Of a DNA stretch of 61,496 bases, positions 6,401 to 60,916 are shown piece by piece. Source of the DNA: a virus; UHGV virus genome UHGV-0350099; one strand, 5' to 3'. The position numbers were made by a program, and so were the translations under genes. Each line of letters starts with the position of its first letter. Within the stretch, counting starts at the first letter, position 1. The notes beneath the pieces are model-generated. The model was not told the origin of the DNA. It saw only the letters and a list, made by a program, of their open reading frames with translations, and did no database searches.

Positions 6401-6922
6401 TTATTCTTCGAACAATTTTTCGATAGATTTTGTTGGATAGAACAAAGAACGATCGTTGTTACCAACCAGCTGGATAAAGCCCAAACTTTTATAAAACGCC
6501 CTGGCTTTATCGTTCAACGCCTCAACGAAAAGCCCATGAATGCCTACCGCAAGAGATGCATTGTACACAACACGCATTGCGTGAGTTACAAGCATTGAGC
6601 CAAGCCCCTGACCTTGAAGAGATTTGTCCAAAGCCAGTCTGCCTAAAGTGATACTTGGGACATTCCGATAAGGCACTTTCTTTTGCTGACTCTTTGAAGG
6701 TAAGGTTTCTTTCTCAAAGCAGCTGCCTGACAAAGTGTAATAACCTAATACCTTTGGTATTTCTTCTTTAGTGCAAAGCACATAAGCGCGAAGAATTTTT
6801 CCTTCATGCTGTCTTTTTAAGTGGTTGGTCAAAAATGCGTTTAGTGACTCTTCGCCGCAATCAAAACCGTTTAGATCATAATCGTTCTCTCCAGAGAAAA
6901 TCTCGATCGTCGTATTGCTCAC
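6401..6922 (-). CDS. GNAT-family acetyltransferase toxin (TacT-like)
   Basis: 173 aa; acetyl-CoA motif LGRLALDKSLQGQGLGSML; immediately downstream of a DUF1778-type small protein on same strand. Confidence 0.7.
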   Translation of the reverse strand: MSNTTIEIFSGENDYDLNGFDCGEESLNAFLTNHLKRQHEGKILRAYVLCTKEEIPKVLGYYTLSGSCFEKETLPSKSQQKKVPYRNVPSITLGRLALDKSLQGQGLGSMLVTHAMRVVYNASLAVGIHGLFVEALNDKARAFYKSLGFIQLVGNNDRSLFYPTKSIEKLFEE

Positions 6923-6929
6923 GAGTAAA

Positions 6930-7199
6930 TTACTCCATGCTTTTCAGACGATTGGCAGCTCGTTTCAGCTTGTCGTTCGGTGCCGGAGGATTGCTTATAG
7001 CATCCATAACCAGATTCCAGGACTCTTCACTTAGAACCAGTCTACGGTGTTGCTCTATCACCTTCACGGCACGTTCGGATGCACTGCTAACCATGAACTG
7101 GGTAATGCTCTGGTTAGACATTGCGGCAGCTTCCTCGATGATGCTTTTATCGTCATCGGTTAATCTCAAATCGATGCGCTGCTTTTTCAGTGCGGACAT
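6930..7199 (-). CDS. RHH/DUF1778-type antitoxin (TacA-like)
   Basis: 89 aa; RIDLRLTDDDKSIIEEAAAMSNQSITQFM pattern typical of DUF1778 antitoxins; 7-nt gap to GNAT gene. Confidence 0.7.
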   Translation of the reverse strand: MSALKKQRIDLRLTDDDKSIIEEAAAMSNQSITQFMVSSASERAVKVIEQHRRLVLSEESWNLVMDAISNPPAPNDKLKRAANRLKSME

Positions 7200-7518: not shown

Positions 7519-8187
7519 ATGACCAAGATCTTTGTGGTTGGCGGCACAAAGGGCGGGCCTGGCAAATCCACTGTTGCCCAGCAAATTGCCGTTTGCCTGA
7601 AAGTCAAAAAGAAGAAGAAGGTTTATATCACTGATATAGATATTCAGCGCACGACAACGAGCTGGTGTGAAGACCGTCGACAGAACGAAGACCTTGAGCT
7701 GATTCCTTTTGCATACGTTCAGGATGACATCATTAAGCACCTAAAATCGCTTCAGGGTAGAGCTGAGTATGTAGTGGTAGATGCTGGTGGCTTCGACTCC
7801 GAAATTCAGCGACAAGCGATGCTGATGGCTGACGTTATCATTATCCCGCTGCGTCCTAAGCGTCGTGATTTGAAATCTTTACGTGACATCGATCCTATTA
7901 TCGACAATGTTCGCAATGTAAACGATAAAGTGAAGGTCCGCGCGGTCATGAACCAGTGCCCGGCTTTGCCATCACAAGTGTCTCGCATTCTGGCGGCTAA
8001 AGAGATTGTTGAGACGTTTGGCATCGAGTCTGCGCCAGTCAATCTATATAACCGCAACGTCTATGATGATGCGGAAGAGTCTGGTCGTTCTATCTTTGAA
8101 ATGACCGGTAGCGAGCGCGACAAAAAGGCGGAAGCCGAGTTTGAAGAATTTGTAGATTATCTGTTGAGTCTGGAGGAAGAAGAATAA
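7519..8187 (+). CDS. parA: ParA/Soj-family partition ATPase (small, type Ib-like)
   Basis: Deviant Walker A GGTKGGPGKST at N-terminus; 222 aa without N-terminal HTH. Confidence 0.8.
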   Translation: MTKIFVVGGTKGGPGKSTVAQQIAVCLKVKKKKKVYITDIDIQRTTTSWCEDRRQNEDLELIPFAYVQDDIIKHLKSLQGRAEYVVVDAGGFDSEIQRQAMLMADVIIIPLRPKRRDLKSLRDIDPIIDNVRNVNDKVKVRAVMNQCPALPSQVSRILAAKEIVETFGIESAPVNLYNRNVYDDAEESGRSIFEMTGSERDKKAEAEFEEFVDYLLSLEEEE

Positions 8188-8546
8188 TGTCCATGAAAAT
8201 GGGTGACCTAGCAAAGCGCAAAGAGCCTGATGCACCGGCTAAGAACACAACTCCTTTGCGCCAACCAGTCAGACCACAGGGACGCCCGACTCGTGGCAAA
8301 GAGAAAATTAAAAGCCGCACGATGTCACTGGAAGACGAATACTTCGAACTGCTGGAGATGATGAAGTTCATCCCTCGCTTCGAGAAGTTCACCCGTTCTG
8401 ACGTGATTCGCGCAGCCATTTTCCATCTGGCAGAGAAGTCACCGCAGGAAATCGAGGACATCGTGAAACTTAACGAGGCGATCACTGCTGCCGATGTCAC
8501 GATGCGTACCGATGAAATTAAACGCGAGTTAATGAAGAAAGGTTGA
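8187..8546 (+). CDS. Small partition/centromere-binding protein partner (ParG/RHH-like)
   Basis: 119 aa; start overlaps parA stop (TAATG); basic N-terminus, C-terminal region compatible with ribbon-helix-helix. Confidence 0.45.
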   Translation: MSMKMGDLAKRKEPDAPAKNTTPLRQPVRPQGRPTRGKEKIKSRTMSLEDEYFELLEMMKFIPRFEKFTRSDVIRAAIFHLAEKSPQEIEDIVKLNEAITAADVTMRTDEIKRELMKKG

Positions 8547-8558
8547 TATAAATCTCTA

Positions 8559-8594
8559 AGGCTGGTCTGCATTGGACAGCCTTAGAAATATTTC
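8559..8594. terminator. Hairpin between convergent genes (bidirectional terminator candidate)
   Basis: TAAGGCTG-N12-CAGCCTTA inverted repeat between parB-like (+) and 8607-9680 (-). Confidence 0.35.
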
Positions 8595-8606
8595 GTTCTA
8601 TGAAAG

Positions 8607-9680
8607 CTATTCGTAGTTAAGCTCACCGAACAGACTGAACATCAAGTCACCATCCAAAATTTCAAAGGGCAACTCGACATACTCATCCTTATGTCTCGGA
8701 ATTGCGTTGCCGTCGTTAGGGGCATTCTTGGTATAACCTTTTACATGTTTACCGTTTTCTTTTGTATACGGCAGCACGACAATTCGACCGTGATTTTTTG
8801 AAATGATAGTTCCTTCTTTCCAGAGCGTATTGCCTCTTGAGGTGGTTTCGCTTTCGCTAGCAACTTTAACACTCCAACCTACCTGATTTTTGTCCTCAAA
8901 CCAGAAAACAAAGTTGCCAACAACCAGTACCTTTTGCCCATTCCTGAGAGCTTCATCCAGCATTCTTTTTACGCTGGCGAGTTGCAGTAACCGGTTAGCA
9001 CGCGGCAGAAGCATTGAGCGAATAGTCGCTTTTGTTTTTCCCCAATGTGCAGCGCCTGATAAACCAAAACCTCTGGCTATGCGTTCTTGGTAGCAGATCT
9101 TCGCTGTCTTAGCTTTGTTGTTATATGAACATTCCCAAGTGTTAGGAGCAACGAGTTGAAGTGAAACTTGGAATTTGGGAAGAAAAACAAAATGTAAGTA
9201 AGGCATCTCGCTTAGCACGTCAAAAAGGGGTTGACGCAAAGTTTCGTAATCTGGGTTAATTATTAACTCATTTAATGTCACTCGCGGATCGTTGGCGTGT
9301 GCCTTAATTGCTTCGTTGAGCATTATATGCTCTTCATCCATGAGACGTGATTTGGCTTTGAGTGCTTTGTCAACTTTCAAACGCAATGACTTCTTTTGAA
9401 ACATAGATAGAGGAAGTTTTTCAATGTCAAAGCTCACGTTTTTATTCAGCTCTAATGCCGCTTTTCTTGCTTCAGGATAGTTATCGTAGTCGTCATCAAA
9501 AGCGTGGTTTGGCATACCACGATCAACATATCGCCGATACCAAGCAAGGGTTCCATCATTACGGAGTTTCAGACAGAACATCGACCATTTATTCCGTTCA
9601 TATTTAGGCTGAGGCCAAAAAGCCAGTTCGGGAAGGCCATATCCTGGAAGTCTATTCATGCGCATGGTGACAATATCCAC
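8607..9680 (-). CDS. Hypothetical protein in AT-rich accessory segment
   Basis: 357-aa ORF on minus strand; lower GC than flanking replication genes; no motif recognised. Confidence 0.5.
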   Translation of the reverse strand: MDIVTMRMNRLPGYGLPELAFWPQPKYERNKWSMFCLKLRNDGTLAWYRRYVDRGMPNHAFDDDYDNYPEARKAALELNKNVSFDIEKLPLSMFQKKSLRLKVDKALKAKSRLMDEEHIMLNEAIKAHANDPRVTLNELIINPDYETLRQPLFDVLSEMPYLHFVFLPKFQVSLQLVAPNTWECSYNNKAKTAKICYQERIARGFGLSGAAHWGKTKATIRSMLLPRANRLLQLASVKRMLDEALRNGQKVLVVGNFVFWFEDKNQVGWSVKVASESETTSRGNTLWKEGTIISKNHGRIVVLPYTKENGKHVKGYTKNAPNDGNAIPRHKDEYVELPFEILDGDLMFSLFGELNYE

Positions 9681-9922
9681 GAGGCTAAAACACTGATTCT
9701 AACATGATCTCCCTTGATAAATCTGTCAATGACATAGCATCTGGGGTTGGAGTCAAATTATGTTGTTCTTGGTATCCATTAGGAGCCTGTTTCTGTATAT
9801 AAATAATAAGTAACTTATTAAATATATACGGAAGCAGGTCTTTTAAAAGACACCACCAGACCAACTCCCTTCCGTTTTCACTTCCAAAAACTGACACCAG
9901 TCGCTATCATCCGTTCATTGTG

Positions 9923-54547: not shown

Positions 54548-55357
54548 ATGAGTTCGGTTGAAAATGTAATGACAAATGATGATCTGGACGAGCTGACAGC
54601 CATGTTGCAATCACTTGATGAACCAGTAAAAAAAGCTGCACAGGTTGAAAATACTGATGATATTGACGATCTGCTGCTCGGCCTAGATGCTGGCGTAGCC
54701 ATGAGTTCTGATGATGTTGCCGAAGAACTGTTCAATGAAGAAAAAGCAGGTGATTTCAGCTCTGCTTTAAATGAGTTGGAGTTAGCGCATGAGCCTATAA
54801 ACGTAATTAACGTTGAAAGTGTTGAAGCTGCCGAAAACGAGCCAGAACAATTGGGATTTATTGAGGTTGAAGAGTGTGTTGAGGTTAATGATGAATTAAA
54901 AGTTCAACAGTCAAATGATAGCAATACAAATAAAAAAGCTCGTACTGCAAGAGGTCCTCGTTTTACTTTAAGTGATAAAGATGATTCGTTTTTCAATAAA
55001 GCGGGCTTAGAAAAAGATATTTTCTTAGACGCTTACGATAACGCGCCTGTCAAAGCAAAGGATAAGATATTAAACCTTCTTAATTGGTTTAGCGGAGGTC
55101 CAGATATTAGTGTTTACACGGTAATTTCCATGAGACACCTTCTCACAGAAAAGAAGGCTACAAGTAATAGTATTAAGATTGCTTTAATGAGCAATCCAGA
55201 AAAACCGTATCCGCTTAACACTGCGTCAACTCAGGCTGGGCAAATGATGGCTGTATTTCCAGCGACAGGAATTGCCGTTAGAGACGGTGGAAATCTAACA
55301 TTGAACGAAGAATCACCGATCGTTAAGAAGTTTGTCGCGGAGTACACTATTGGATGA
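54548..55357 (+). CDS. Hypothetical acidic protein (AT-rich gene)
   Basis: 269-aa ORF, Asp/Glu-rich N-terminal half; lower GC than neighbours. Confidence 0.45.
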   Translation: MSSVENVMTNDDLDELTAMLQSLDEPVKKAAQVENTDDIDDLLLGLDAGVAMSSDDVAEELFNEEKAGDFSSALNELELAHEPINVINVESVEAAENEPEQLGFIEVEECVEVNDELKVQQSNDSNTNKKARTARGPRFTLSDKDDSFFNKAGLEKDIFLDAYDNAPVKAKDKILNLLNWFSGGPDISVYTVISMRHLLTEKKATSNSIKIALMSNPEKPYPLNTASTQAGQMMAVFPATGIAVRDGGNLTLNEESPIVKKFVAEYTIG

Positions 55358-60244: not shown

Positions 60245-60916
60245 TTGGTCAAATTTATATACGGGGCTTGGTTCTTACATATACACATACTGGGGATAAT
60301 TATGTTCGGGATGTCAATTACTCAATCAGATGGAAGTTTGTGGATGAGTCCAGAATTTACTCCGCAAAATCTGATTAATAAAGGGACAATGTCTACATCT
60401 AAAGGTTCTGTTTTTCAAACATCAATCCCATCAAACAAATCATGCTTTTTCTTCATAAAAAGCAGTAATAAGGCGAACATGATGTTTATTCATGAGCATA
60501 GTAACGGATACAATGCTCTCAGATTGCATCAGGTAAATGGTAGCCCCGGAACAATAACAGTTTATGCTTTTTCTGATATGGTGTTACCACATTCTGGCTA
60601 TGGCATTGCCATGTATAACAGCGCAGGCGCAATGGTGTATCACGGTGAGATGATGCCCCTTGATGCGAAACTTATCACTATTTCTGACCCTCAATTTACA
60701 ATAGATATGGGGTATCCATGTGCGGTAATGCCTGCTATGGTTGGGGTATATAACTATAGACGAACCGATTACGACAGACCTGTCTATGTAACTATGACCG
60801 GTGCAACTGGAAACCAAGTATATAACGGTCAATGGTATTCCGGTAATGTCACATGGGATATTAAGAAGATTTATACAAACAAAATCCTGGTTATAAATAC
60901 CTCAAAGTATGATTAG
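60245..60916 (+). CDS. Hypothetical protein (AT-rich gene); true start may be internal ATG
   Basis: 223-aa ORF in low-GC segment; overlapping 60018-60299 ORF may be alternative/upstream gene. Confidence 0.35.
   Translation: MVKFIYGAWFLHIHILGIIMFGMSITQSDGSLWMSPEFTPQNLINKGTMSTSKGSVFQTSIPSNKSCFFFIKSSNKANMMFIHEHSNGYNALRLHQVNGSPGTITVYAFSDMVLPHSGYGIAMYNSAGAMVYHGEMMPLDAKLITISDPQFTIDMGYPCAVMPAMVGVYNYRRTDYDRPVYVTMTGATGNQVYNGQWYSGNVTWDIKKIYTNKILVINTSKYD

Follow-up and report, generated by a model that had tools for sequence, protein, structure and literature searches.

Genes and signals at the locus

The window, that is, the whole stretch of 61,496 nucleotides that was analysed, belongs to an SSU5-like phage-plasmid of E. 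coli, and the region of the gene considered here shares 99% identity or more with many plasmids of 108–112 kb from E. coli and Shigella. As the initial annotation had placed it, the gene lies between the partition and replication modules, with ParA- and ParB-like genes on one side and a 246/249-aa ORF, a helicase gene and a primase gene on the other, in the company of a toxin-antitoxin pair (Table 1). It also opposes the main direction of transcription as had been stated, 47 of the 55 ORFs of at least 100 aa in the window being on the plus strand and 8 on the minus strand. The GNAT/RHH pair next to parA carries a KacT-type annotation in phage Cyrano and had no match in PADLOC; one of the validated two-gene systems of DefensePredictor, DS-33, is nicknamed GNAT (PMC13092281). 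A second minus-strand ORF, of near-equal length (351 aa), is found elsewhere in the window, and paralogy with the gene was rejected because the two are unrelated by BLASTP.

Table 1. Coordinates of the cassette, its flanking genes and other features of the window
Feature	Position	Strand	Remarks
GNAT-toxin/RHH-antitoxin pair	6401–7199	-	adjoins parA
ParA gene	7519–8187		left of the cassette
Small ParB-like gene	8187–8546		convergent with the 352-aa gene
Replaceable one-gene cargo cassette, partition/replication hotspot	8550–9774		from blastn breaks against SSU5 and Cyrano
Cassette-specific 3' region, 57 nt	8550–8606		hairpin with 13-bp stem, 8552–8564 / 8577–8589
Protein-coding gene of an orphan family, 352 aa	8607–9665	-	stop codon 8607–8609, ATG 9665–9663
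Cassette-specific 5' region of the gene, 109 nt	9666–9774	-	holds the conserved extended -10 element
GTG ORF, 70 aa	9685–9897	-	very likely no gene
Near-perfect palindrome	9786–9838		26-nt arms, 1-nt centre; backbone DNA just right of the cassette
Replication module			right of the cassette; 246/249-aa ORF, DnaB-like helicase, primase
ORF, 351 aa	38709–39764	-	unrelated to the 352-aa gene
ORF, GC 39.8%	54548–55357	+	
ORF, GC 38.4%	60245–60916	+	

Counted from its first GTG (9680), the ORF encodes 357 aa, which is the length initially reported. The ORF is real and ends where it was said to end, but its biological start is almost certainly the ATG at 9665 rather than the GTG, giving a predicted protein of 352 aa. 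Four lines of evidence argue for this start: near-identical plasmid genes in RefSeq/GenBank are annotated from that ATG, the alignment with the protein group PHROG 22329 begins at residue 6 of the 357-aa form, all 35 of 35 aligned homologues start at the equivalent methionine, and the ATG is kept in the upstream DNA of E. coli, Klebsiella and S. Typhi pHCM2 while the GTG is not. The span 8607–9900, which had been proposed as the gene, did not hold, as positions 9681–9900 are non-coding and everything from 9775 onward is backbone DNA. A GTG ORF of 70 aa falls inside that span and is very likely no gene because it crosses both a backbone palindrome and the cassette border.

The 352-aa gene is real and under strong purifying selection. 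Comparison with the pHCM2 orthologue gave a dN/dS of 0.07 and comparison with the Klebsiella orthologue one of 0.15, close to the values of 0.02–0.05 obtained for the flanking parA and 246-aa ORF. In the same comparisons, dN in the N-terminal half of the protein is 2.5–5 times that of the C-terminal half, with both halves constrained.

The extent of the acquired DNA can be read from the related elements. In blastn comparisons with SSU5 and phage Cyrano, the homologous backbone runs up to 8548/8549, three bases past the parB-like stop codon, and restarts at 9775–9778, which identifies 8550–9774 as an insert with the 352-aa gene in it. Within the cassette-specific 5' region, an extended -10 element (TGTTAGAAT, 9704–9696) is kept in E. 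coli, Klebsiella and pHCM2 and is likely the putative promoter of the gene itself. This promoter function is inferred from conservation because a consensus scan of the cassette 5' region gave no canonical two-hexamer promoter; a TTGACA at 9729–9724 sits 22 nt upstream of the -10 element, too distant for a canonical -35. On the other side, the cassette-specific 3' region contains a hairpin that, as RNA, is predicted at -19 kcal/mol (z -4.3) and, located between the convergent parB-like gene and 352-aa ORF, looks like a terminator.

Immediately beyond the right border, in the backbone, lies a near-perfect palindrome, whose conservation extends to SSU5, Cyrano, Klebsiella and pHCM2. Because it occupies the divergent region upstream of the module of 246-aa ORF, helicase and primase, it is a candidate for an operator or an origin element. 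An Rfam scan of the region returned only spurious miRNA and hairpin matches, all on this palindrome.

The gene had initially been described as AT-rich, with lower GC than its surroundings, and a comparison of GC and codon usage bears this out in direction alone. With a GC content of 42.8%, the ORF falls at the 11th percentile of stretches of 1059 nt, the window as a whole having 46.1%, and its GC3 of 41.5% is about one sd below the mean over genes, 46.5% (sd 5.3); the GC deviation amounts to about 1.2 sd and is not significant. Two ORFs near the right end of the window deviate more (Table 1) and, because their GC is lower than that of the 352-aa gene, are better candidates for recent acquisition by composition. 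The GC and codon evidence is thus too weak, and composition alone would not show horizontal acquisition.

A cargo hotspot between partition and replication genes

The slot between the parB-like gene and the 246-aa ORF has at least five alternative contents across SSU5-like phage-plasmids. In SSU5 itself it holds three plus-strand genes, the last of which encodes a DUF2971 protein matching the PADLOC candidate PDC-S31, the two others being unassigned genes. A single DUF2971/PDC-S31 gene occupies the slot in Cyrano and many E. coli plasmids, and a single DUF2971 gene is found there in Enterobacter and some Klebsiella plasmids. S. Typhi pHCM2 has both a DUF2971 gene and the 352-aa gene, in opposite orientations, while one K. 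pneumoniae plasmid carries a KAP-family NTPase matching PDC-S49 and one S. sonnei plasmid an unrelated minus-strand ORF of 224 aa. A DUF2971 protein of 181 aa has been shown experimentally to be protective, as the validated system DS-45 of DefensePredictor (PMC13092281, Tables S6/S8).

The cassette itself is a minority occupant. It is present in 138 of 737 flank-matching plasmids, about one in five, and missing from about 80% of them; it was found in 37 of 5426 complete E. coli genomes, plasmid-borne every time, and only 6 of 50,697 phage records contain the 352-aa gene. Moreover, in plasmid pCTX (NZ_CP047004.1, 1501–3333) an IS1 element interrupts a copy of the gene whose sequence is otherwise 100% identical; about 200 aa of the product are left, and the plasmid persists. 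That the gene is acquired, dispensable cargo, a moron, is established by the borders of the cassette, by the other genes that occupy the slot and by the insertion of IS1. An acquired moron had been proposed at the outset from composition and position; the position argument has been borne out by a one-gene cassette in a swappable slot, and the composition argument is the weak part.

The same observations bear on whether the gene could be a part of plasmid replication or partition, such as an initiator, a copy-number factor or an incompatibility factor. Its place between the par and helicase/primase genes would suit such a role, and these plasmids are typed IncFIB, with no initiator gene identified here. 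However, the gene is absent from SSU5, Cyrano and the great majority of flank-matching plasmids, its interruption in pCTX, an extant plasmid, indicates that it is not needed for replication or partition, most of its homologues are chromosomal, and neither a Rep domain (Pfam, NCBIfam) nor meaningful iteron-like direct repeats near the gene were found. A replication or partition role is therefore very improbable, and the reading as a replicon with Rep and iterons is rejected by the comparative data and close to refuted. Still less credible, to the point of being nearly negligible, is that the ORF encodes a structural or housekeeping phage protein or is non-functional: searches of Pfam, NCBIfam, PHROG and PDB profiles, in which the initial annotation would have seen such homology as decisive against its proposal, gave no structural or housekeeping homology, the gene is missing from most related phages as well as from nearly all phage records, and purifying selection is strong with protein length constant across phyla.

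An orphan protein family and its genomic company

The protein matches PHROG 22329 over its full length (E 1.4e-257; residues 6–357 of the GTG form against profile positions 1–352 of 352), and this group, its sole profile match, carries no functional annotation. Pfam and NCBIfam scans gave no match, and none of the defence HMMs of PADLOC-DB 2.0.0 matched at E up to 1, in keeping with the early remark that no motif was recognisable. A word-indexed search retrieved 346 homologues with at least 49% identity, all annotated as hypothetical and almost all of 346–357 aa, in Enterobacteriaceae, Vibrio, Shewanella, Aeromonas, Pseudomonas, Colwellia and other hosts. Searched exhaustively with HMMER, 1.84 billion cluster representatives yielded 141 representatives of the family, many of them fragments, and 92 relatives were confirmed in a scan of 185,579 species, each represented by a single genome; 32 loci of the family are present in IMG/VR, several of them close to contig ends. 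The family occurs in Alpha-, Beta- and Gammaproteobacteria, across which identity ranges from 39 to 80%, and in addition in one Bacteroidota genome and one Chlorobi MAG. Being rare, patchy and highly conserved at the same time, it has evidently spread horizontally.

The family appears to be uncatalogued. Its accessions are not mentioned in the literature searched, and its WP accessions are absent among the entries listed in the DefensePredictor supplementary tables. A 2025 DefenseFinder survey of phage-plasmids reported no defence system in pHCM2-like elements (10.1101/2025.09.12.675607). Since these elements carry the 352-aa gene, this negative result means only that the family is uncatalogued.

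Conservation is unevenly distributed along the protein, which is predicted to be soluble and basic (pI 9.3) with long helices. The N-terminal half (aa 1–185) is variable and the C-terminal half (aa 186–352) highly conserved: the commonest residue of an alignment column has a mean frequency of 0.46–0.57 for aa 1–185, 0.77 for aa 186–245, 0.63 for aa 246–280 and 0.84 for aa 281–352. Distant relatives share the core alone, roughly aa 232–325, on unrelated N-termini that include zinc-ribbon and coiled-coil regions. The core is marked by the motif W-x2-G-x-I-x-S-[RK]-N-x-G-x-[IV][IV]-x-P ... D-G-x2-V-x-G-[YH]-T-[RK]-N-x-P-x-[ED]-G-x-A-x-P-R, and across 80 aligned sequences W282, S289, N291, P299, G310, T312 and R324 are invariant, with no acidic residue or histidine among the invariant positions. 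In the working model the C-terminal core is beta-rich, and within the structural comparisons made both halves appear to be predicted folds without a recognised relative. A sequence profile search of the PDB gave only noise (best E 1.1), hhalign detected no internal repeats, and 10 distant relatives scanned contained no informative Pfam domain; a beta-propeller match in one of the distant relatives, P0285, was rejected as spurious. No similarity to a known enzyme or fold was found, so there is no pointer to an effector activity.

The surroundings of the homologues are more telling. In V. parahaemolyticus the homologue directly follows GajA/GajB and precedes a HEPN_Toprim_N gene, and in Pseudomonas it has for company an AAA_15/21 ATPase gene, a beta/cII pair, BubE/ThiF-domain genes and a pair of OLD-TOPRIM and UvrD genes. 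In Salmonella it is the first gene past the integrase at a prophage end, where a gene for a NEL-type effector adjoins, it comes right after the integrase, with an AAA_21 ATPase gene beside it, in a P2-like Vibrio phage, and in Aeromonas it lies within an integrase island. For two distant relatives the contigs were too short to tell anything about context.

Clustering of the ORFs around 78 homologues from 78 species revealed no universal neighbour, the commonest, HipA, being present in 14 of 78, and the absence of a constant neighbour across these loci shows that the protein acts without a fixed partner. When the 148 immediate neighbours at these loci were scanned with PADLOC, the top family counts were 11, 11, 9, 7, 6, 6, 5 and 4, with LmuB-like models matching 11, PDC-S06 7, beta 6, PD-Lambda-2_C 6, DRT 5, GajA 4 and GajB 4. 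The 121 control ORFs, taken from 7 kb or more away, gave 4 matches for the top family and at most 2 for any other. The comparison is semi-quantitative, as it uses per-family counts and as the control ORFs, with a median length of 198 aa where the neighbours have 256 aa, are shorter and possibly lie in the same islands. The direction is clear: defence genes are commoner beside the homologues than in the distal controls, the pattern of a gene of defence islands.

Two arrangements recur within lineages. In Alphaproteobacteria (Bradyrhizobium, Rhodopseudomonas, Sphingomonas and others), a HipA kinase gene, a gene for a 374-aa protein, an optional PDC-S06 ATPase gene (874 aa) and the homologue are co-directional. 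The 374-aa gene overlaps hipA by 4 bp and has no match in Pfam or PADLOC; it may be a further partner or a separate system, and comparison of its product with the protein studied here gave no homology. In seven Pseudomonas species, a P4-type beta gene follows the homologue after a gap of 268 nt and in the same direction, a cII-like gene is convergent, and gop is absent.

Candidate functions and comparison with known systems

Taken together, these data suggest that the accessory cargo of the SSU5-like hotspot encodes a stand-alone cytoplasmic protein acting against phages or other mobile elements, a defence or exclusion function, whose expression, driven by its own promoter, would fall in the lysogenic or plasmid state, when the element is kept as a plasmid prophage. 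This reading is the most likely one, with moderate probability, and draws on association: the slot otherwise holds defence-type single genes, homologues occupy defence islands and prophage ends, and the family is distributed as mobile defence genes are. An exclusion or defence gene had also been suspected initially, from the habit of such positions in phage-plasmids, and the slot cargo and the location of the homologues now argue for it in the same associative manner. As for how the protein might work, the variable N-terminal half combined with a re-usable conserved C-terminal core suggests a sensor/output arrangement, in which the faster-evolving half would recognise an infection cue and the near-invariant module would be the output part. 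The output would more likely consist in the binding or blocking of a conserved target, or in assembly into an oligomer, than in metal-dependent nuclease chemistry, because the invariant residues include neither an acidic residue nor a histidine. Both the sensor/effector split and the mode of action are speculative.

Positions at prophage ends and in plasmid cargo also host virulence, anti-defence and fitness genes, and these roles have to be weighed against defence. An anti-defence or element-benefit factor would shield its carrier, whether phage-plasmid, prophage or island, against host immunity or aid its establishment, and such a factor might well be borne, as this gene is, by mobile elements of all three types and be a small, basic, soluble protein lacking an enzymatic signature; the anti-retron gene Rad is known in elements of the SSU5 group (10.1101/2025.09.12.675607). 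In Vibrio and Pseudomonas, however, the homologue is embedded in chromosomal defence-gene clusters, and the alternative occupants of the slot are of defence rather than anti-defence type. The gene is moreover unlike an early anti-defence gene, because it opposes lytic and early transcription and has its own putative promoter, and the anti-defence role is accordingly judged unlikely. Slightly more unlikely is a factor of lysogenic conversion or host fitness that has nothing to do with phages, for example a regulator or a nucleoid-binding protein. The basic charge and long helices of the protein fit that idea, as does the effector gene next to the Salmonella homologue, but no helix-turn-helix or other DNA-binding domain was detected (Pfam, NCBIfam), the neighbours are enriched for defence and not for virulence or metabolic genes, and the presence of the family in free-living soil and marine Alpha-, Beta- and Gammaproteobacteria argues that it is not tied to virulence.

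A toxin-like module of addiction or growth control, similar to gop, held in check by another factor and stabilising the element, would account for the homologue taking the place of gop by beta and cII in the seven Pseudomonas species and for its position in Alphaproteobacteria, where it follows HipA and the 374-aa gene in one co-directional array. Against it, neither the window nor 71 of the 78 species have beta and cII, the cassette contains no second gene, Gop has 133 aa whereas the protein has 352, and, as judged by model matches, the protein resembles nothing in the PADLOC library, which has beta and cII models. These points make the gop-like module quite unlikely, a shade more so than the fitness factor; it also overlaps the main explanation, because gop-beta-cII itself counts as a defence system. 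Identity with P4 Gop was likewise rejected on the model search and on an adjacency seen in only 7 of 78 species, and a type II toxin-antitoxin module was rejected since there is one gene in the cassette and no neighbour is conserved across loci.

Returning to the defence reading, a more specific version of it is a tentative one: the gene could be the founding member of an uncatalogued family of single-protein immunity, with a C-terminal fold that has no known relative and lacks catalytic residues of the nuclease type, and with a mechanism not yet described, in which a phage would be stopped by stoichiometric blocking of a conserved target or by triggered self-assembly. The carriers of the family are SSU5/pHCM2-type phage-plasmids of E. 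coli, Shigella, Klebsiella and S. Typhi, together with proteobacterial defence islands. Clinical E. coli, Shigella sonnei, Klebsiella and Salmonella Typhi commonly carry phage-plasmids of this type, pHCM2 has few cargo genes, the 352-aa gene among them, and an effect of the cargo on phage susceptibility would bear on phage therapy and on the persistence of these elements. If the protein is protective, the catalogue of defence systems gains a new family with an unrecognised fold and a very conserved core of 90 residues, whose invariant positions offer themselves for mutation; the compact hotspot defined here between the parB-like gene and the replication module is in addition a place to mine for further cargo.

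With regard to known systems, PHROG 22329 is the same family, matched over its full length, and names it without explaining its function. Modular single-protein defence systems with a sensor and an effector are alike in that the N-terminal half varies while the C-terminal module is conserved, a likeness of architecture alone, and differ in that the 352-aa protein has no recognisable sensor (NTPase, repeats) or effector (nuclease, TIR, SIR2, pore). The gop-beta-cII cassette is a defence system of the P4 hotspot, and the homologue takes the place of gop in the seven Pseudomonas species, co-directional with beta and convergent with cII; it differs in its size, in the 268-nt gap to beta and in that beta and cII are missing in most species. 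The DUF2971 (PDC-S31) and KAP-NTPase (PDC-S49) genes have no sequence similarity to the 352-aa protein and are read in the opposite direction, but they share with it the same hotspot in sister phage-plasmids and are also single genes. The candidate is thus new, while its kind is rather a well-known one, hotspot cargo with a probable defence role and not a new kind of genetic element.
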